The notes: a model not told the origin generated them from the sequence alone. 64,000 nt of DNA from Cirrosporium novae-zelandiae (GCA_026023565.1 JAPETS010000006.1:124001-188000), one strand, 5' to 3'; counted from the first letter of the stretch, positions 12,672 through 64,000 are shown. Translations and numbers: made by a program.

Positions 12672-13514
12672 TTAATCCTTCGCCCATTCATTTCCAACCA
12701 TACCACCAAGTATTGCACACTTTTGACCTTGAATAACCTCTCCTCCATCACCTCCTTTACACCCAAGTTCACAACCCCCGACCCACCATGCGGCTGCTCT
12801 CACAATTTCCCCCACAATCGCTATTTCGTCCTCACTTCTTGGTGCATAGATCATAACGAACCCTTCTGGGACACATCCAAGTAGCCGATGCGCGCCTGAT
12901 AGGGGATGCCTTTCACCCCAGCCATTTTCTATGACCGCCTTCACGTCCCCTGGATGCAGAGTTGTATGCATACTTCCGTCAGAAGGGTGTGCATGGGCAA
13001 TTTCTCCTGAACAAGTTTTGTTTATCTCACATATAGAGAATAGACCACAAGAATGTTTCTCGAAACATGAGGTCCCCTCTTCGAGAAGCGCAGGATGCGT
13101 CTCAGCAAGACCGTGAAGGTGATTGGCAAGAGCACTGTACAGTTCAGGAGTAACCTTTTGTGTAATCTGACGTTGTGGAGCTAGCCCCTCAACTTGCGGA
13201 CGAGGACCACGGCGTTTTGGGAGGTTAGACAATCTTCCAGGAAAAAGGGCCAAAATTGGTGGGAATGGTGGAGGCTTGAGTGGATCACGAAGGGCAAAAG
13301 GGCGAAGACAGAGGATACGGAGGTATCCAAGGAATGTAGAAGGTGTACCACCAGGCCCAAGTGCAAGGAAACGGTGATAGTCGGCAACAACGACGCGTTG
13401 AAGATAAAATATAAGAGGAAGGAGGAAAATGAAGGTCAAATCGTGGAATGAGAAAGCGAAGAGAGCTTCAATTCCATGGTAGAAACTAGGGGAACAAACT
13501 TTGCAAGATTGCAT
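12672..13514 (-). CDS. Luciferase-like / DUF5519 domain protein with N-terminal membrane anchor
   Basis: DYHRFLALGPGGTP, RRGPRPQVEGLAPQRQ, SCFEKH, GEIAHAHPSDGSMHTTLHP, GWGERHPLSG and FVMIYAPR are the motifs of the fungal Luz-related family. Confidence 0.8.
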   Translation of the reverse strand: MQSCKVCSPSFYHGIEALFAFSFHDLTFIFLLPLIFYLQRVVVADYHRFLALGPGGTPSTFLGYLRILCLRPFALRDPLKPPPFPPILALFPGRLSNLPKRRGPRPQVEGLAPQRQITQKVTPELYSALANHLHGLAETHPALLEEGTSCFEKHSCGLFSICEINKTCSGEIAHAHPSDGSMHTTLHPGDVKAVIENGWGERHPLSGAHRLLGCVPEGFVMIYAPRSEDEIAIVGEIVRAAAWWVGGCELGCKGGDGGEVIQGQKCAILGGMVGNEWAKD

Positions 13515-15403
13515 CTTAAGAAGCCCCTGTGCTGCTAATTAGTCCCATATTTTGATAAGTTTAATACTATTGAGATCTGTTTGTCCTCTGCAAGTTGATC
13601 TTGGTCCACAACAACTTCGACTTGAGATGCTCAACCGTTAACGGTCTCCAAGAGGCGTTATATAAAGCTTGATATGAGTCTGATTTAACTGTGAGGTGGG
13701 ACTGCATCACGTACCAAAAGTCTTCTAAACGATTAGATATAAATTTGATATATTTATGAATCCTTAAACCTCCGATAGTAAAAATGGTCTTTTATTTTAT
13801 TATGAATCGAGGTAGATAAAAATATGGTAATGGAGATTGCTATGGAGAAATGGAAGAGAAGAAGAAGCGTGTTAGAGGGAAGGAGAGAAAGCAAGGTAAA
13901 ATCTGAGGTGAGGAAGAAATAGTAATGTGAATGTGAAGGGAGTCATGTAGTGTACTTTAACCTTGTCACGAGGAGTGAAGCCACAAATACGGAAGAGACA
14001 CAAGCAGCGACGCACGCGGTTTGCCCCACAAGGTCAGAAGTTGGGGAAATTGAAAACATGAGGTGAAATGGATTGTTTTAAGTTGTTCTGGTTAGGTCAT
14101 TATCTGTTAACTGTTTCTATACGTCAGATACAAACCATTGAGAGAGATAGCAAGAGCTAGAAGACATACAAACAAATCAACTTTGGAAGAGTATTGTATT
14201 GCATGGGAGGAGGGTATTTGAATTCAAGCAACCCAGAGAAAAGCGTGTCGGTACAAATATGCTGATAAGAGCAGGGGAGGTGGAAGTGCAATTATCGTGA
14301 GAGAAGAGAACAGTAGCCTCCGCTTTGGAAAATACCAAGTACTGTAGTCACACGTACCAACATTGAGGGGAGCTTCTTACAGCTAACCAAAGCATACATC
14401 TAGTAGACTAATTATCATTATTAACAAGACGAAGAGTCTAGGTAGTCAGAATACCCCGCGATTCCAAGATTCCGCAAGTAAGATGCTGCATTAGTTGTGG
14501 CTTGCTGTCGCTCGAATTTTAATTAATGGGAAACTTCCGATTGAATGAATAATTTTATGATTGTTATGTAATCACTTATGAACTGAAGAGCCAAGAGAAA
14601 CGGCGGCTCAGCTTGTGGTGATTATTAAAACCCCCTTTAAGACCTGAAAACAGATCTTCAAATTTCACCTGCGTAGTGACTTAGTACCTATATAGTAAGC
14701 GAAAGGATTTCACCATACGCAAGCAACGATCATTAGATCATCCGAGATTTATTTCAGGGAAAAATGATCGGTGTGGGGGGGATGAAGAGGAGGGGGGCAG
14801 ATAATGGTCGAGCTTGTCTCAGTTTGTCCCTTTTTGCTACTTGATTTGGGAACAGAATGGACATTACATTTTACTTGACAAGAAAAATAGGTTGTGATAA
14901 AACTAATATTGATAATAGGTGCATGCATAGGTTCCCGTTGCCCCTGAGACCGAGGATTCACTAACCTTTGTTTGGCTCAATTCACCGATAAAACCACCTA
15001 TGATAGGAAATACCACGGCTGTTGCAACTTCAAAGTTCGATGGAAACACTTGAAGCTTCCCTGGCGACACAAAACATAAAAACATTGGGGCCTTTTGATA
15101 AACTTTGAAATTACGCCTTTTGACTTCTGCATGTCTATAATCTTCACCTCACTCACTTTACACCAAGCTCCTGTATATATCACAAACATTCCAACTGCTG
15201 TCTACCTATTGCTCCATCCATCCAAATAACCCTCAAAGTTATATCGTGTTTTGCTATCAATATCCTAGTATGCTCCTTCATCTGAAGTCACTTTAGTGCA
15301 CTCCGCTCATTGAAGAATTTCTCTAGATAACCCACGTTCCAACCCAACCAAGGTCTTCTTACCTTGACACAATCGAATCTTGCATGTTATCTTGTAATCG
15401 CTA

Positions 15404-18315: not shown

Positions 18316-20330
18316 TTATAGCTCCGAAGGTACATTTACATAATGCCCATTGAGCTCCTCAAAAAAGGTTTCAAAAATTTTCTGCCCTCTAGACCCCTTA
18401 CGCCCACCCAACACTGCAAACACAACCTCCAGCCACCATCCCTGGAACTCCGTCTCAGTAAAAACCTCCTTCCACAAGTCCATAATCTCCTCCGGAGGGT
18501 TTCCGAAAGCCCCGCATCCAAATGCTCCTAGCACGATTCTCCTTTGCTTCATACCAGCCATGATGCGCAAAATGGAGCGCATTTTTTCCCGCGTTAGGTC
18601 GCGGTCCTTGGCATATTTGAAGCGGGGAGGGTCGGCGTTTGTGAGGCCGGGCCGGTTGATGGCTGCAACCGTGACAACGCTGAGAACGGGGAGGTCCTTG
18701 GGCTTTTTGAGATCCAGAAGCTCATTTCCGTCGGCCATGGATTTGCGGAAGACGACAACTGAGGGGGAGTAGATGCCGCCGGTGTTGCGTAGGGGATAGT
18801 ATTTTTTGTTTAACGTGGCGCTCAGGGTGCTGCGGAAGCATAGGGCTTCTTCTTGGGCTCGAGTACCCGCAAGCCAACCGCCCCCTGGGCGAGATTGATT
18901 TGCGAAGCTAAGGACACAGACGGTGGAATTGCGTCTGCCTTCTTCCATCATCGAGAGGGCGGCATCGAAGCTGTCTCGTTTCACGACGCGGATGGTGGTG
19001 GGGGGGTAGCCAGGGGATTCTGTGTCAAGAGAGTCTAAACTTGTGATTTGACCTTTACGTTGTGTTTCTGGGGGTATGTATAGCTTGCTTTCTATGGTGG
19101 CTCTATCCTTGTAACTTTCGAGAATTTGTGGTATGAGTTTTTGGGTTTCTTTGGCTACTGCCGCCATTGCTTTCTGCGAAGGGGCAGGGCGCGTCTTGGG
19201 TTTCGGGGCTTCGGGGGGAGGTTTTGTCTTCTTAAGTGGCGCTAGCTTTGGAGATTCTAGAGACTTTAGAGATTTTGGAGACTTTGGAGACTTTGGTGAC
19301 TTTGGTGCAAATTTGACGGGAGAGCCCTTCGCGGGTGTTTCTGTAACAGCTCCGGACTCAACTAGCTCTCTAGGAAGTTCTACAGGGAAGAAGCTATAGA
19401 AATCCTCTTGCAATTTCACATCGCCATGGAAAAGCGTTGTGACTTTCTCAGCAGCCTTAGCTGCTGTTTCTAAATTAGTTTCCCTAAAGGATAGGATGAG
19501 CTAGGCAAGACAATTCCCTTGCAATTCATACTGAACTTACCTAGCAAGTACAAACTCATACACGCCATCGAAATAGTCTCGCAGATATTGGAGAGTAAAT
19601 GTAGGGTTTTCGAAGAACTGGTCAAGAACGGCATTTTCAAACTTGATGTATGAATTCCAAACGCTGTCAAGTCGAAATAAGCTGTTGATTTTATTGAATA
19701 TGATAGAACGTGTGTCGTTGTCTATGCCCGCGATAGTGAGAAAGTCCTATTGGGAATATCTTGTTAATCATGTAGAACGATGTCATGCAAGAGGAAAGTA
19801 TCTAAGATAGCTGGAGAATATTTTAGGGAAAATTCAACTACCGTTCTACTTAAAGCATTCAAGATACAAACAACGTATGGGGAACGAACCAAAGTTTTTT
19901 CCAGACGCTTTATTCGCCCGTGGTTATGAGGTGGTGTAGTATCAAAATATTTTGGTTTTTTCTGTGCGGATTCCCCTTGCTCGGGATTCTCTTCATGTCG
20001 AGGATGTTTCTTAGATACAGGGTTGTTGATTTTATCTGTACTTTGCCTTCTTGTTATTTTCTTGCTTTCCTCCTGGTATCTAGCAGGTGAAAATGCCATG
20101 ACTTCCTCGATTGATTGCCGGAATTCTTCTTCGGTGGGGGGATCCTCCAACCAAGTAAGTACTACCTTTAGCCTATTGAAAAGAGTTTGCTTTTTAGATC
20201 TTGAGGTTAATTCATCGTTTTGGTCTGTGCCGTAAAGTTTCATCAACGAGAGAATTTGATACTCGTTCAACTGCATCAACCAGTATTGGTCTTTCCACCC
20301 AAATAGGGAAATAGGCTCATTTAAAGACAT
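18316..20330 (-). CDS. Bacterial-type PARG / TIGR02452 (DUF2263) macrodomain protein with long N-terminal extension; predicted exons 20330-19890, 19746-19541, 19483-18316 (~604 aa)
   Basis: The C-terminal domain has VLSFANQSRPGGGWLAGTRAQEEALCFRS, IYSPSVVVFR and IVLGAFGCGAFGNPP. Two introns (GTTCGT...TAG phase 0 and GTAAGT...TAG phase 2) join three open exons in frame. Confidence 0.8.
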
Positions 20331-57032: not shown

Positions 57033-60000
57033 ATGGACGACGGACCTGTTCATCTTGGGGACCAAATACATTCAATGGTCTGGGATTATACCTCTCCAAT
57101 AAATCAACTCCAATCCAGTGAATGTGCCCGTCTTCTCGATGATATTGGCAGACTTCGTTCTCAAGGCATCAACCATTCCTTACCCCTTCCTAGACTCATT
57201 GTTTGTGGTGATCAGTCTGTAGGGAAAAGCTCCGTTCTCGAAGCCATATCTCATGTGAAGTTTCCTACAAAGGACCAACTTTCTACGTGTTTTGCTACAG
57301 AGCTCATACTACGCAAAACTCCTGGGAATTCATCGGTCGCAGTCACAAATGATACCGGCCATTTGAAAGGTATCCCCGCTGTCAAGAAAGGAAACGATTG
57401 CCCCTAGTTTACTGCGAACTGATATTTATCTAAATAGGAACCAGTGTTACTTCGGTCACTATTGAGCCAGGAAAGTCAAGATCTCATGAAGATGAAAAAA
57501 GGCTTCAGGAATTCAAGCCTAGTTTAACAACTATTGATAATTTTCCATCTTTGGTTGAACAGGCAAAAGAGGCTATGGGGACATCTCCTTCGGGAGGCTC
57601 TCTCTATGATGATATTCTACGAGTAGAGGTTTCTGGCCCATACATGCCTCATCTCTCTATTGTCGATCTTCCTGGACTTATTCATTCTGAAAATAGCCAA
57701 CAGGCTGCTGAGGATGCCGAACTTGTCTCAAACCTAGCTCAATCATACATGGCAAACCCTCACAGCATTATCCTAGCTATCATATCTGCAACAAATGATT
57801 ACGCCGATCAAATTGTGCCAAAGCTAGCTCGGACGTTCGACAGGGATGGGACTCGTACACTAGGTTTAATCACAAAACCAGACACGCTGCATCCTGGTTC
57901 TGATAGTGAGGTAGCGTTCCTTAGACTAGCTAAGAATGAAGATATCCACTTCCGGCTTGGCTGGCATGTACTTAAAAACCGAGATTATAACACGTCCGAT
58001 CCATCTGCCAAAACTCGTGATGAGGCCGAAAGAATATTCTTCTCCTATGGTTCTTGGGCAGGTCTCAGTTCAACTTGCGTGGGTATAGCTGCCCTTCGAA
58101 ACCGACTGAGTAAAATCCTGCTCGAGAACATTAGCAATGAATTACCGAACCTCGTTGGAGAGATCAAACGCGGAATCGATGATTGCTATAACAAATTGGC
58201 TAAACTTGGGGCTCCACGTCCTACAACAACTGATCAAATATCATTCCTCACAGGTATTAGTCAGACATTCCAATCTCTTACAAGAGCAGCCATCGATGGG
58301 AATTATGGTGATCCGTTCTTTGGAGATTCAACCTTAGAATCAAGCTATAACAAACGTCTTCGGGCTGTTATCCAGAGTTTAAACCAAGACTTTGCTACCT
58401 CAATGAATCTACGTGGGATGCATCGGTGGATTGTGGAAGATCTCCCTTCAATAAAATATGAAGGTTTCCCAGAAACTATAACGAGGGCTAGCTTTATCGA
58501 AGAAATACGGAATTCTCTAGAATGCAATAGAGGTTGCGAACTTCCTGGCACCTTTAGTCCACTTGTTATCGGAGACCTTTTTTTCAGGCAAGCAGCGCCC
58601 TGGAAGGATCTAGCTGATGACCATATTACCGATATCTGGGATGCAGCCAGGTCATACTTAGAATTAGTGATAAGTGAAATCTCAGACAAGAGAACTTGCC
58701 AGGCTTTGTTACGAGAAGTTATTGATCCAGCTATGGACACAAAATTGGATATATTGCGGACCAAGTTGCAAGAACTCCTTATACCACATCAAAGAGGTTA
58801 TCCAATCACTTACGACCGGAATTTCACTGAAAAAATCCAGTTGTTGAGGCATGAACGTCAGGTTAAGAATACCACAGAAAAACTGTCCCGTTACTTTGGA
58901 CTCCAAACAGAGAGACCAAGTGCCAACACTGACATCCAGCTTCCATATTTATCTTTCGATAATGGCAAGAAAAATGAGGGCATCTCGACAGAATCTAGCT
59001 CAACCGCATCTTCAGTCTTTCCCAGTCAAGATAGTCAGCCTATGGGAAATGTTTCAGACCTAGTTGCGGCTCTAACATCCTATAACGTGAGAGATATGCA
59101 TAAAGACATATGCTCAGAGATGTTGGATTGCATGGAAGCCTATTATCAGGTATTACTAAGTCCCCCCAAGAAAACCACTACCATCCTAACCATTCCTCCA
59201 AGATTGCCATAAAAGTATTCGTTGATAATGTCGCTGCTATTGCAGTCGAAGGTTGTCTTATGGATGGGCTTGTAGACATTTTGTCGCCCTTCTCCATATT
59301 ACGAATGGACGCAGATATGATCACAAGGATTGCTAGCGAATCTGACGAAGCTTTAAATGAACGTCTTTATGCTACCCAGAAGCTTAGTGTTCTAGAGGCG
59401 AGTCTGCAGACCTGTAAACGTTATGCTCCTCGGAAGCTCACTAGTAAGTTTTTTTCCTTCTTATAGCCTTTTGCCCATCTATCGTTCACATATATTACTT
59501 GGAGATGTCCACATGTCATAGGCAGATATGCATCAGTCAAACTAGTTATTTTATTAACTACTGTATGAGCCTGATCTAGCTCATCTTCAATGATGAGGGC
59601 ATCAGTGTTTTTAAATTTATTTTCGAGTGCTAATTCTCTATTTAGATAGGGCTAAGGCACCCACTATATCACCAGTTAAATTAGAAGTGAAACATAATGA
59701 ACAAAACTTAGACGCTGTTACACCCACTTTTAGCAATTATGAATCAGATCTCAATTCAACAGTACGATCAAAAGGAACATCAAATGCCTTTGACACACTA
59801 GGAAATGCAGATGCAGAACCTCTACAAAGTCCCCCTCAACGCCCTTTTTCGGTACCCTTGTCAGGTCCGGCAGCTTCTTTCTCACAAATTCTGGTCACCC
59901 CTTCTACTTCAGCAGCACCATCAGAAATAGCATCGAATGGAACAGCCAAGGAAGAGACCTTCTCTAAGGAGCCTGGAAATAAGTTCACTTTTAGTGAAAA

Positions 60001-60103
60001 TCCTTTCCCTAGTCCAGTATCATCTCCAAGGTTTGGTCGAGGGGCGGGGAGCTCTTCTGCTTTTGGGGGATCTCTTTTTCAAGGTAGTTCTCCCTTTCAA
60101 TAA
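57033..60103 (+). CDS. Mx-like dynamin-family GTPase; introns 57370-57437, 59150-59202, 59444-59645; possible spliced extension to 60928
   Basis: G1 GDQSVGKSS, G2 TCFATE, G3 DLPG, G4 TKPD, LGWHVLKNR, RGCELPGTF, and GED region YYQIAIKVFVDNV. All three introns keep the frame, and a Ser/Pro-rich tail follows. Confidence 0.9.
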
Positions 60104-60417
60104 CGGCATTCTCGACATTTTTTGGCTATAGCGACTAGAGGGTCGAGACAAGATATAAGCCGATTTATTGCAGCTTTCTTTTGCTTAAACTAAGGTGGAA
60201 CTTTGAGCTGCTTTTACAAGGGCATAATTTGTTGAAGACAGGCAACTTGGCTCTCATGAATAAAAGGTTCATGGGTATCCCTAAATATTATATCTGACTT
60301 GTTCGTTTGATTTCAAAATGTATTTCTTCAACTTTACTGAACAAACAATGTCGCCCACCCTTTACGACCCAGATATTCTAGGCAAGTCAACTTGCAGATT
60401 ACTAACATGTTCTCCAG

Positions 60418-60928
60418 GTACTCATTCAACCCAAGATATCTCGAATCAGCACGGCAGAAAGCCCTCGACCAAAGGCCTAGGAATCTTTCACAAACAACAA
60501 CAGACGCTTGAGCCTCAAACCCAAACCCAAGCCCAAGTCCTAGCCCAAGCCTCGCTACAAGCATCATTAACCGAGAAGAAATGGTTCAAAAACTACGGAA
60601 CGAGTTGTCTGCCTTCTTCTATCTGTTTTCGATTTCTAGAGGGGAACTTACCAGGTACCACCGAGGTGTACGAGGCTATAAGCGCGCTGAGGAATTACGA
60701 GGACTACTCCTTCGAGGTGCGTGTGTAAAAATCTAAATAATAATAATTCAAAATGTCATCCCCTATCCCCCAATGTACACTTCTTTTTTCTTTGTTAGCT
60801 GATATATATATCTTTCTCTCTATTTTTAGGAACTTCGATTATCGGATTACATTTTAAGCCAGAAGTCAGACCTTAGCCTGGAGACCCCCCTCCCTCTTTC
60901 CGGGCGGGACAGTGTGGGACGTCCATAG
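60418..60928 (+). CDS. Exons encoding a Nup98/Nup116-type GLEBS-like motif (60418-60716, 60830-60928); either 3' exons of the dynamin gene or part of a small separate gene
   Basis: A phase-0 intron (GTGCGT at 60717 to TAG at 60829) reconstitutes YEAISALRNYEDYSFE|ELRLSDY. An upstream branch point CTAAC and CAG acceptor lie at 60417. Confidence 0.65.
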
Positions 60929-61544
60929 GGTGACGCTGGAAATTAGTTAGCAATAGTCATTTCGAGGAGAGAATTTTTGATTCACTGGGTGCCCCCTCCC
61001 CCCCTAGAGCAATGAATTGATAGATTCTCTCTCCTCTTCTTTCTTTCATTCCTTCCTTCCTTCCTTCTTTGGCGTTCATTGAGACATTCTAGCGATTGAA
61101 AGTGTGAACCGGAAGGGGGGATGTTAAATGCTAATATGTCGAATACTACTACTACTACTACTACTACTTTGTTACTTAAAAACGGTTCAAGAATCTTATC
61201 TGTAGGCCTGATTATTTGAATCACCATCACCATCTCCCCCCATTTTATTTTATTTTTGTTAAAAAATCTATGCGTAATGCCATACACAACAACACAACGG
61301 TACTCAACTCAACTCAACGAACGAACGAACGCGCTATCGTACATATACACATTCAAATCAAGTTTCCCACCAAAAACCAAAAACCCACAACCCACAAACA
61401 ACAACAACATCATCATCATCACTAAAAAAATATTTTGCAAATAAAATGTCTTTTTTCCCCCAGATTGGATCCAAAATAGATTTTAAAATAAAGAAAGAAA
61501 TGTTGAATCCCCCCCCTCGCTTCAATTAAATTTTATTCAATCAA

Positions 61545-64000
61545 TCAATCAGGTTCGTCGTCTAGCCTCATACCTCTCCCTTCAGCAGTCGTATCACAAT
61601 TTCCTCCTCCTTTTCCTCCTCCAGCTTCCAAGGACCTAGTCGAGGGTTCTAGGTCTGGTGGCACTGGTGTATTCTTGATCCCACCAGTAGTAGCAGTAGT
61701 AGCAGTAGTAGTAGTAGATTTCTTCTTCCCTTTCCCCTTTTTCTTTCCCCTACCCTCCCCGGGAACGATAGGCGCCTCCCTAACCCATCTAGCCACCGCC
61801 TCCGCCCTCTCGGTACTGATAGGATATTCTTTTGCATCCTCCTGAGAAGCCCATCCTCCCCTCCCCCCCGCACCACCACCCCCATCTCCACTCTCTTCCT
61901 TCCTCAGCTCCTCCGCGCGTCTCTCGCGCGCCCTCAACGCAGCCTGAAAGCTCTCCTCGTCCTGCACGCGCTCGTCTGCCAACGCCTCCATGATAACCTC
62001 ATGTTTCCTGCGTTCTTTTCTCTCTTCTTCTGTCTCCTCGCGCATGAGACTGCCGGGGCCGTAGCCGCCGCCGGCGCGACCGGAAGCCGGTGGCGGTCGC
62101 TTCTCGCAGAGAGTTTCCCAGCTTTGTTGGAGGTTTAGCCAGTTATTGGCGCGGCGGACGATTTCGATCCAGTCTGCGCGTGCTGGGGAGCGCGCGGGTA
62201 GGAAGATGGGGCTGCCGTCTGTGATGCGAGTGAGGCGGGCGACCATGTGGGCGTGGCGGAGGAGCTCTTTTGGTGAGGTTTGGATCAGCGCGTGGCAGAG
62301 CAGGAGGGAGTGGAGAGCGTCGGTTATGAGGGGATGGTAGGTTAGATGTTCGATTAGGGGGTGGGCTGACTCCGGGAGTGGGGCCTTGGATTTCGGGATT
62401 AGGGCTTGTGAGGATGTGGGGTAAGGGGGGAGGTTTGCTGGGGGGCTGGGGGAAAAGAGGGTGTTGACCGGGTGGGCTTGGATATGGAGGGGGTAGTTTG
62501 GGGCGTGGGAGTAGCTGTGGCTGTTGTAGTGGGAGGAGTGGTTGATCTGTTGCCGGGGGACGAGGCTGTTGTCTGTTGGTTGGCAAGGGTTATTGGACTG
62601 GTCGAGCAGTCTAGAGTTAGAGTGGTTCCTCCGAGTAATGTTGATTCCACCAACTGTTAGCTCGTGATATCTTCGAAAGAATTCCTCAAGCAGTTCTGAA
62701 GGGTATTCTGGACTGTAGCTGAAGTGCGATAGATAAGCTATATAATCTCGGAGTGCACGTTTGGCACATGTTTTGACAATCTTTCGTGCTTCCGCCCTAT
62801 GTCGGGCAGCTTCCTTCTCCTTGAAGCTTTGTATGGGTGGTTTTTCGATACCAGAAGGTGGTGACCTCTCTGTGGTATTCTGCGTTTCTTGCGCGGGTTT
62901 CAATACATTAAGAGCATCATCAATATGTCGGACGGCGATTGTGAGATAGGTACCTGCCCGATGAAATAATAATTGGATCTCCATGCTGCTAGGTTGATCT
63001 TCGTCAGTGAGTTTTGGTTGTTCATATCTTGCATTTGGATCTCGTGCTTGACTTTTTAATGCAAGGGCCATCTCTTCCTCTTTTATAGCTCGGTGCTGTG
63101 CTAGCATCCTGTATTGGCCTAGGCCGCTGGTGAGGTCTGCAGCAGCACCGGCGAAGTCCTCCTTGAAGATTTTTGTCAGCGCCCTGGTACGATATGCAGC
63201 AACATCTGATTGAAATGGTCCAGCTACGATAACATCATCCAAAGGTTTCAGGTCGGTACACTCGGCTAACATGCGCGAGGGAATCTTTTCATGGAAGAAA
63301 TGAACATATTTAGCATCAGGATCATCCGGACTTCTATCCAGCACATGTTTAGCTACCAGTTCAAGTGATGAAGCAGACTGCATTGTTGCCACGCTCGCGG
63401 CAATCTCGTCAAGATGGTAGGCTTTGGAGAGCTTTTGTGTTGCATTTTCTCTCATTCTATGTTTTCTCTCCCTGCTCAGTTTTGCATTTGTCCCACCTCC
63501 ACCTATACCAAGTCCCAGAGCTGCTGCACTTCCACCACTAAATATTCCATTGCTGGCATTGATAGAATTCTGGAGGGCTGAGGACGTTGTGCCGTTTGCG
63601 GCGCGCACAGCTAAACTGGTCGCTTCCTCGACGAGACGGCGGATCTTGACAAGGTCGAAGAACACCGCGGGATCAATAACCTGAGGTCGAGGAAAGTAGT
63701 AATTATAGTAGGCAAACGATTCGAGGAGCTCGGGGGGCAATTGCAGCCAAGGACCGTGGAAAGCAGATATATATCGCCAATGCCTGTAGCATGGAACACG
63801 GTCAGCCAACAATATTCTAACTTTTCCATTGAATTGAGAAGGCAATTCCACTCAAGACCTCAATTTTCCCCCACAAGTCTACTCACTTATTCCGACAGAT
63901 TATCAGTGCTGGTTCAGACATCTTCGGGCGAGTCTGCTTTGCTGCCGGCCCTGGTTGTTGCAGTGCGGTAGACATCTCAGTCGAGGTGTTGGGATCCGTT
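61545..64000 (-). CDS. Conserved fungal hypothetical protein with TPR-like helices (5' end beyond window; intron 63886-63784)
   Basis: NKHWRYISAFHGPWLQLP, KLSRERKHRMRE, LDEIAASVATMQSAS, YVHFFHEKIPSR, TYHPL and SPARADWIE. Confidence 0.8.

Follow-up and report, generated by a model that had tools for sequence, protein, structure and literature searches.

The DNA considered here is a stretch of 64,000 nucleotides (nt) from Cirrosporium novae-zelandiae (GCA_026023565.1 JAPETS010000006.1:124001-188000), a member of an isolated lineage of Pezizomycotina (PMC6712537). We refer to the whole stretch as the window, and positions are counted from its first letter. Between positions 57033 and 60928, on the plus strand, lies what we read as one six-exon gene for a dynamin of the fungal MxF type, 1041 amino acids (aa) long, that ends in a GLEBS motif of the Nup98 type; judged from the sequence, we place the probability of this reading at roughly 0.62. 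Joined by their coordinates, the exons give a coding sequence of 3126 nt with 0 internal stops, and all of the introns are canonical GT..AG introns with CTRAY branch sites. The same locus carries a protein model deposited at NCBI, KAI9738628.1 (hypothetical protein M1834_008133 of a metagenome-assembled Cirrosporium novae-zelandiae genome; 1012 aa), called P0121 below. In the list that follows, GC denotes the fraction of G plus C and ORF an open reading frame.

57033..57369, plus strand: exon 1, starting with the ATG at 57033 and holding the P-loop GDQSVGKSS of the dynamin G domain (Pfam Dynamin_N, 2.2e-08).
57370..57437, plus strand: intron 1, GTATCC...AAATAG, 68 nt, phase 1; its removal keeps the Dynamin_N frame, and P0121 has the same intron.
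57438..59149, plus strand: exon 2, the remainder of the G domain (DLPG, TKPD) and the middle/stalk region (Pfam Dynamin_M 4.4e-21, Dynamin_N 3.6e-16); the closest solved structures are Mx1/Mx2.
59150..59202, plus strand: intron 2, GTATTA...CTCCAAG, 53 nt; its removal joins ...MEAYYQ to IAIKVFVDNV..., as in the GED region of homologues.
59203..59443, plus strand: exon 3, the GED or bundle-signalling part, which aligns with the GED regions of relatives.
59444..59645, plus strand: intron 3, GTAAGT...CTATTTAG, 202 nt, GC 0.34; retention leads to a stop in frame at 59466.
59646..60083, plus strand: exon 4, a disordered tail rich in Ser, Pro and Thr that ends in RFGRGAGSSSAFGGSLFQ(G); codon score +0.167 in frame.
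60084..60417, plus strand: candidate intron 4, GTAGTT...TACTAAC-12 nt-CAG, 334 nt, phase 1, GC 0.39; used by P0121.
60418..60716, plus strand: exon 5, a linker rich in Gln and Thr, then the first GLEBS half, YEAISALRNYEDYSFE at 60669-60716; it corresponds to P0121 residues 911-1009.
60717..60829, plus strand: intron 5, GTGCGT...GCTGATA...TTTTTAG, 113 nt, phase 0, GC 0.29; not in the NCBI model.
60830..60928, plus strand: exon 6, the second half of the GLEBS motif, ELRLSDY at 60830-60850, then 25 residues and the stop codon TAG at 60926-60928.
60318..60350, plus strand: two in-frame ATGs, at 60318 and 60348, either of which could start a stand-alone product (165 or 155 aa); they lie in the open ORF 60285-60728, which shares the frame of exon 5.

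Introns 1–3 have to be removed if the conserved frame of the dynamin is to be preserved. The tail that follows the GED part is disordered and about 260 aa long, and it is here that the two remaining introns fall. Exon 4 ends in ...FGRGAGSSSAFGGSLFQ and then CAAG/GTAGTT, which sets the donor at 60084 in phase 1; the acceptor of intron 4 consists of TACTAAC at 60400-60406 followed by TGTTCTCCAG up to 60417. Across intron 5, the joined reading is ...YEAISALRNYEDYSFE/ELRLSDY.... An earlier, sequence-only reading of this DNA had proposed the start codon, this donor and acceptor with their phases, the second tail intron and the stops, and direct reading together with scripted joining found each of them in its place. 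It had also predicted that failure to splice 60084-60417 would stop translation at 60103, and indeed a TAA at 60101-60103 closes a protein of 915 aa when intron 4 is retained. Isoforms that have or lack the motif, as that reading proposed, may exist. The ATGs at 60318 and 60348, which it had named as rival starts, are likewise present and in frame with exon 5.

What kind of GTPase does the gene encode? P0121 matches Pfam Dynamin_N (4.5e-26) and Dynamin_M (2.4e-20), and the G1, G3 and G4 elements (GDQSVGKSS, DLPG and TKPD, respectively) are intact in the translation. No PH or any further domain was found in P0121 by Pfam at E<=1; the Pfam GED profile had no match in P0121 either, though exon 3 aligns with the GED regions of relatives. 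In the Protein Data Bank (PDB), the top eight matches among solved structures are all Mx1 or Mx2 (4.4e-26 to 1.7e-24), with Vps1 next (6.6e-23); this ranking of Mx before Vps1 is a proxy, taken from PDB matches, for the placement in a phylogeny. A family that fits has been described: fungal MxF proteins are Mx-like dynamins without an assigned function that belong to an ancient lineage of Mx proteins, in which gene turnover is high (Langley et al., PNAS 2025, PMC11789081). The Mx-like GTPase of the sequence-only reading is thus in keeping both with the structural matches and with a described family, and “Mx-like” appears to be a reasonable label for this sequence. The closest of 2128 relatives has 50% identity, and none is a close orthologue.

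The tails of this dynamin family also show a feature of another kind. At least nine of the 24 inspected relatives longer than 690 aa (P0015, P0019, P0035, P0048, P0050, P0091, P0093, P0100 and P0116) carry a polybasic, Lys-rich patch at the C-terminus, e.g., KKKKKGIRR or KKKKKAKQ. This patch looks like a nuclear-localisation or membrane-binding signal, and the variable tail of the family may encode a cellular address generally.

Through the GLEBS motif, Gle2 is held on Nup116 in yeast and, in mammals, RAE1 on NUP98 (PMC2133102). After splicing, the C-terminus of the window protein reads ...YEAISALRNYEDYSFEELRLSDY and then 25 residues, and the core I-[ST]-A-[ML]-x2-Y-x3-S-x-EELR-x2-DY is present in it as ISALRNYEDYSFEELRLSDY. 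Natural GLEBS motifs were sampled by scanning metagenome contigs of the Joint Genome Institute (JGI) with the degenerate DNA pattern I-[ST]-A-[ILMF]-x6-[S-like]-x-EELR-x2-DY, which gave at least 129 matches at at least 123 loci, with 94 distinct matches. Of the distinct matches listed, 66 of 94 have at least two phenylalanine-glycine (FG) dipeptides in open in-frame flanks and look like nucleoporins of the Nup98 family.

A GLEBS profile was built from 96 distinct natural peptides and tested among 7,718 targets. The spliced protein scored 37.0 bits (E 5.5e-10), close to the 37.7 bits of P0142, a Pseudogymnoascus dynamin described below; the deposited, unspliced model scored 15.4 bits, the exon 5 ORF 18.4 and exon 6 9.8, and the best of 5000 shuffles of the tail reached 8.2 bits. 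When 2,571 six-frame pieces of the window were examined with the same profile, the top two were the two exon halves (18.4 and 9.8 bits). At core positions that the search pattern left free, Tyr7 of the window motif agrees with 84 and Phe12 with 48 of the 94 natural motifs listed. The Nup98-type GLEBS that the earlier reading had recognised in the spliced tail is supported by its profile score and by its core residues. The motif halves, searched separately, had no match in PDB and none in Pfam at E<=10; the relevant Pfam entry is Nup98_GLEBS (PF21240), which has a gathering score of 27 bits.

The two tail junctions differ in their support. Exon 5 is 100% identical to residues 911-1009 of P0121, a match that came from an exhaustive HMMER search with the 99-aa exon as query and 1.84 billion representatives. 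P0121 joins 60083 to 60418 and keeps 60717-60829, so that it ends ...YEDYSFEVRV at 60728. The 60083/60418 junction of the sequence-only reading is therefore the one that NCBI's own gene model uses, and what supports it is architecture plus gene models. Its acceptor is the sole TACTAAC-N(5-25)-YAGG site in the 64 kb on both strands (0.72 expected per window), and the donors of the homology-verified introns 1 and 2 (GTATCC and GTATTA) are as weak as the GTAGTT of intron 4. Exon 4 (ORF 59615-60103) has no Met of its own. Segment 60084-60417 has an intron-like GC of 0.39 and a negative codon score in all three frames, although its codon statistics do not separate an intron from an intergenic spacer. 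The end of exon 4 (FGGSLF) resembles the FG tail of a Cudoniella dynamin, P0140, at a blastp E of 0.004, a score that 21 of 1000 shuffles reach.

The second tail intron (60717-60829; GC 0.29, negative codon scores) is much better supported than the 60083/60418 junction, because only its removal makes the complete motif. There is an annotation lesson here: by retaining this last intron, the deposited model loses the second GLEBS half and the C-terminus, and so conceals the motif from domain scans. The precomputed Pfam lists of P0121, P0139 (a Myotisia protein, see below) and P0142 contain dynamin domains only. Two candidate matches to exon 5 were set aside: P0122, a repetitive ENA protein of 1341 aa with 26% identity, was treated as spurious, and a Pfam SSTK-IP match on the Gln/Thr-rich linker (20.5 bits vs. 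a cutoff of 27) was rejected as compositional.

Is the architecture confined to Cirrosporium? The sequence-only reading had suggested searching fungal proteomes for dynamins with a GLEBS motif, and the pairing was found in P0142, in P0139 and at a metagenomic locus, L027. Among relatives of 999-2850 aa, a C-terminal EELR..DY occurs in two of 24 non-self proteins, namely P0142 and P0139. The former (KFY42057.1, Pseudogymnoascus sp. VKM F-4513; 1013 aa) runs in one model from the GED through an FG tail to the GLEBS motif. Its tail holds 11 FG vs. 2.0 expected, of the GLFG, SLFG and GFGS types, and the protein ends ...YRHISAMPVCEEYSVEELRLSDY plus 19 residues, with an EELRLSDY identical to that of the window. 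With its last 73 residues as query, all six PDB matches were GLEBS chains of Nup98 and none was Bub1 or Mad3 (E 0.3-0.49). Look-alikes of the P0142 tail in the ESM-Atlas belong to FG nucleoporin clusters (Nup42, Nucleoporin_FG, NUP98A) at 0.78-0.81, which is a lead only. A homologue search with the P0142 GLEBS region recovered P0142 alone from 5.8 billion sequences, because short motifs cannot reach significance in a collection of that size.

In P0139 (KAK2741135.1, Myotisia sp.; 1178 aa), ...HICFIPSFDKYSPEELRVGDY lies some 150 residues past the GED. A fourth protein, P0140 (KAF4625074.1, Cudoniella acicularis), has eight FG vs. 1.0 expected in a tail that ends ...NVFGGSLFGSSSS, close to the SAFGGSLFQG of the window; no GLEBS was found in this model, in which a 3' intron may have been missed, as in the window's model. 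The Nup98-type C-terminal autoproteolytic domain (Pfam Nucleoporin2) had no match at E<=1 in P0121, P0142, P0139 or P0140.

The last 60 aa of the window protein align with the P0142 tail at a score of 70 vs. 25.0 +/- 4.6 for shuffled sequences (0 of 2000 shuffles reach it) and with P0139 at a score of 46 (reached by 1 of 2000). When the whole window tail was compared with 145 fetched proteins, the best two were P0142 (E 4e-4) and P0140 (E 0.004), both FG-tailed dynamins. A Tyr stands before the Ser in all three fungal dynamin motifs vs. four of the 94 natural motifs listed. The notion that the tail of P0142 or of the window protein comes from a merged Nup145 neighbour was rejected: both proteins end 19-25 residues past the motif. 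Trees were computed with FastTree (144 rows) and, in a quick run, with IQ-TREE (40 rows: the four tailed proteins plus 36 random ones). In the 40-row tree, forcing the four FG/GLEBS-tailed dynamins into a clade gave a log-likelihood 5.15 units better than that of an unconstrained search (p-AU 0.63). These sequences thus allow the tail to have arisen once, but we make no firm claim of this because the branches are long.

The third occurrence lies outside the fungal proteins. When the window dynamin was compared by tblastn with the 123 GLEBS loci listed, it matched one of them, L027 (E 5.6e-27, 25% identity). On the minus strand of L027, two ORFs overlap: one matches Nup98_GLEBS at 33.9 bits, which exceeds the gathering score, and the other has Dynamin_N (1.3e-29) and Dynamin_M. 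The top nine solved relatives of this dynamin are all Mx proteins, with Mx2/Mx1 best at 3.6e-38. If a candidate 28-nt GT..AG intron (L027 1984-1957) is removed, both ORFs become one continuous frame at least 710 aa long, which starts with Met and passes through GLEBS (residues about 33-53; the canonical SAGNK follows DY) and four FxF[G/S/N] motifs to the G domain. The intron was deduced from the sequence, and a frameshift error is a possible alternative to it. That L027 holds two separate genes appears unlikely, because the GLEBS ORF stops about 70 nt upstream of the first Met of the dynamin frame. The motif is N-terminal in L027 and C-terminal in the fungi, and the dynamins share 25% identity; this swap of ends between distant Mx-like dynamins speaks for a fusion that arose independently.

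The same scan turned up loci with two GLEBS motifs 700-1050 nt apart on one strand: L021/L022, L078/L079 (two contigs), L074 and L008, and also L065/L066. The flanks at L021/L022, L078/L079, L074 and L008 lack FG repeats (...GPDGAPNSS...ITAM.AYQSCSFEELRVQDY), and these look like GLEBS proteins other than the classical FG nucleoporins.

Several observations weigh against the reading of 57033-60928 as one gene for a GLEBS-tailed dynamin. The training peptides of the profile were picked by a pattern modelled on the motif, with nine of the 20 core positions fixed by design, and the window motif is atypical at positions 4, 5, 10 and 18, where it has L, R, Y and S vs. M, P, K and E in 88, 60, 69 and 69 of the 94 natural motifs. 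P0142 scores 19.3 bits against Pfam Nup98_GLEBS (E 0.0012), which is under the gathering score of 27. The sequence-only reading had called the window tail FG-containing; FG dipeptides are present, but their number (two vs. 1.2 expected from composition) does not make the tail an FG-repeat domain. The three fungal protein models, P0121, P0142 and P0139, are predictions, and residues 851-1178 of P0139, downstream of its motif, comprise a MARVEL-like segment and a cytochrome P450 fragment by Pfam; this model is very likely a chimera that fuses neighbouring genes. The motif occurs in 0 of the 120 nearest relatives of 313-998 aa, many of which are bare ORF calls without tails. Finally, the four tailed proteins sit on long branches in both trees.

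Further points of this kind gather around the first tail junction, and they would suit an arrangement of two genes, in which the dynamin ends at the TAA at 60103 (915 aa) and a separate GLEBS protein of about 155-165 aa, starting at the ATG at 60348 or 60318, is a conserved neighbour that gene finders fuse to it. The ORF 60285-60728, open and in frame and provided with two ATGs, could express the motif alone. Exon 5 is an orphan sequence, with no homologue beyond its own genome's model in the HMMER search; its codon score, +0.057, falls in between (a value as low is seen in only 0.9% of true coding windows, and one as high in only 0.4% of off-frame windows), and the similarity of its first 60 aa to the tails of relatives does not exceed that of shuffles. 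Nor does any significant similarity span 60083/60418, where shuffles do as well in 342 of 1000 cases against P0142 and in 21 of 1000 against P0140. Intron 4 has a weak donor and, at 334 nt, is long for this gene; that it can be joined in frame is weak evidence on its own, and P0139 shows that predictors over-fuse in this family. Two genes would, however, have just about 215-245 bp between them for a terminator and a promoter, and the acceptor signal stands exactly where the frame permits a join, while the part of the ORF upstream of it (60285-60416) has no likeness to the relatives' tails above shuffles. P0142 is a single model that passes from the GED through 11 FG to the GLEBS motif, and at L027 the GLEBS ORF overlaps the dynamin ORF and has its stop some 70 nt before the first dynamin-frame Met. 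On balance, we regard two genes as a serious but rather unlikely arrangement.

We give much less credence to the annotated NCBI form as the real product. It would have intron 4 spliced and 60717-60829 retained, would end ...YEDYSFEVRV, and would leave the GLEBS likeness without a function. This form is the deposited model, but the retained stretch has a GC of 0.29, negative codon scores and the canonical signals GTGCGT, CTGAT and TAG, and with it spliced out, the GLEBS score is 37.0 bits instead of 15.4 and the EELRLSDY of P0142 is restored letter for letter. It is just as improbable that the GLEBS exons are a dead fragment of Nup98/Nup145 or a chance match from which no protein is made. The weak coding statistics of exon 5 and its lack of homologues would fit such a relic. 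A recent copy of a nucleoporin gene would nonetheless match its parent family, and the exhaustive search gave the exon itself only; in an old dead copy, the intact frame, the intron and the stop codon would not have survived together with a motif of 37 bits; and the motif recurs after dynamins in other genomes. The single six-exon gene, then, is the reading we carry forward, and its domain architecture is probably real and new among the fungal MxF (Mx-like) proteins, a family already known.

The neighbours of the gene are ordinary housekeeping genes (RtcB, GAPDH, MutS, an Hsp104-type AAA protein and a sorting nexin). The 3' spacer at 60990-61540 is crowded with short microsatellite-like runs of (CCTT)n, (TAC)n, (CAA)n, (CAT)n and (CGAA)n. 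Just downstream, on the opposite strand, lies an open frame of 768 aa (window 61545-63851, minus strand) that has low-complexity ends rich in Gly, Pro and Lys and no Pfam match at E<=0.001. At a distance from the gene, the minus strand also carries an ORF with a microbial-type PARG catalytic domain (window 18319-19500; 3.8e-21) and one that matches “Luciferase domain” (window 12675-13538; 5.7e-22).

How does this protein compare with known systems? With fungal MxF proteins it shares the domain set and the Mx-first similarity; it has no close orthologue (best identity 50%) and sits on a long branch. Like human MX2 (MxB), it belongs to the same dynamin lineage by its best solved-structure matches and has a disordered extension outside the body of G domain and stalk; in MX2, that extension ties the GTPase to nucleoporins. 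Human MX2 is reported to bind several nucleoporins via its N-terminus (PMC6264145) and to form condensates that contain FG nucleoporins, proposed to act as nuclear-pore decoys (bioRxiv 10.1101/2023.06.22.545931). The two systems differ in that MX2, which has no GLEBS, uses a short basic region at its N-terminus to recruit nucleoporins in trans, whereas here the nucleoporin motif is present in cis, C-terminal in the fungi and N-terminal in L027.

Compared with the GLEBS regions of Nup98, Nup116 and Nup145N, the window protein has the core and, through P0142, likeness in both profile and PDB matches, and FG sequence adjoins the motif in P0142 and L027. Unlike these nucleoporins, the host of the window motif is a GTPase without an autoproteolytic domain, and the motif is terminal. 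Moreover, the three fungal dynamin motifs lack the Glu that natural GLEBS motifs usually have two residues before the end, as well as the Q-x-G-x-K-G that follows. Bub1 and BubR1 (Mad3) contain a short WD40-docking peptide of the same name, GLEBS-like, that binds Bub3; Bub3 is a homologue of Rae1 (PMC2172680). The window motif follows the Nup98 type instead, in line with the six of six Nup98 matches of the P0142 tail in PDB.

In text searches of the literature, no paper turned up that connects GLEBS with a dynamin or an Mx protein. The terms “nucleoporin,” “GLEBS” and “Nup98” have 0 occurrences in the main text of the MxF paper (PMC11789081), and RAE1 has 0 mentions in the MX2 preprint (bioRxiv 10.1101/2023.06.22.545931). 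Within these searches, a GLEBS-tailed Mx-like dynamin is unreported and would constitute a new targeting module on Mx-like dynamins. That the pairing is an accident of one gene model is unlikely, because three fungal genomes have it and an unrelated eukaryote has it the other way round.

How might such a protein act? Presumably, the GLEBS hairpin would bind the WD40 propeller of Gle2/Rae1, or that of the paralogue Bub3, and a GTPase able to oligomerise would thereby be brought to the nuclear pore or to the machinery of mRNA export. Another possibility is that the protein imitates Nup98. The FG repeats of P0142, P0140 and L027 could add pore-like binding. Contact with the pore would in this way be built into the protein, at the same place where human MX2 acts. 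Judging by the atypical residues of the fungal motifs, binding strength or the partner (Gle2 or Bub3) may differ. Judging by its family, the protein could plausibly help to defend the fungus against viruses or other parasites that target the nucleus.

A broader proposal is that Mx-type GTPases have repeatedly been fused to pieces of Nup98 (FG and GLEBS), C-terminally in Pezizomycotina and N-terminally in another eukaryote, to yield self-contained pore mimics or pore-docked guards. We hold it tentatively, as possible rather than probable. Such proteins might trap nucleus-bound parasites or watch over the Rae1-Nup98 interface, which several animal viruses are reported to target through vesicular stomatitis virus M, sarbecovirus ORF6 and gammaherpesvirus ORF10 (PMC3460625, PMC8790125, PMC7604486, PMC9376891).

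Mx-like GTPases of fungi and protists were recognised only recently, with no function or partners assigned to them (PMC11789081). A built-in GLEBS motif, accompanied by FG sequence in some of these proteins, names a candidate partner, Gle2/Rae1, and a candidate address, the nuclear pore or mRNA export. It also provides a parallel to human MX2, which works with nucleoporins. The recurrence of the pairing hints that Mx-type proteins may repeatedly have taken to mimicking the pore or docking on it, and the question of what non-animal Mx proteins do becomes open to simple experiments. If repeated fusion did occur, these dynamins would be a cis-encoded counterpart of the FG-nucleoporin decoy condensates of MX2; pore association would then be an ancient and recurrent property of the Mx lineage, and fungal MxF proteins would have their first testable mechanism.

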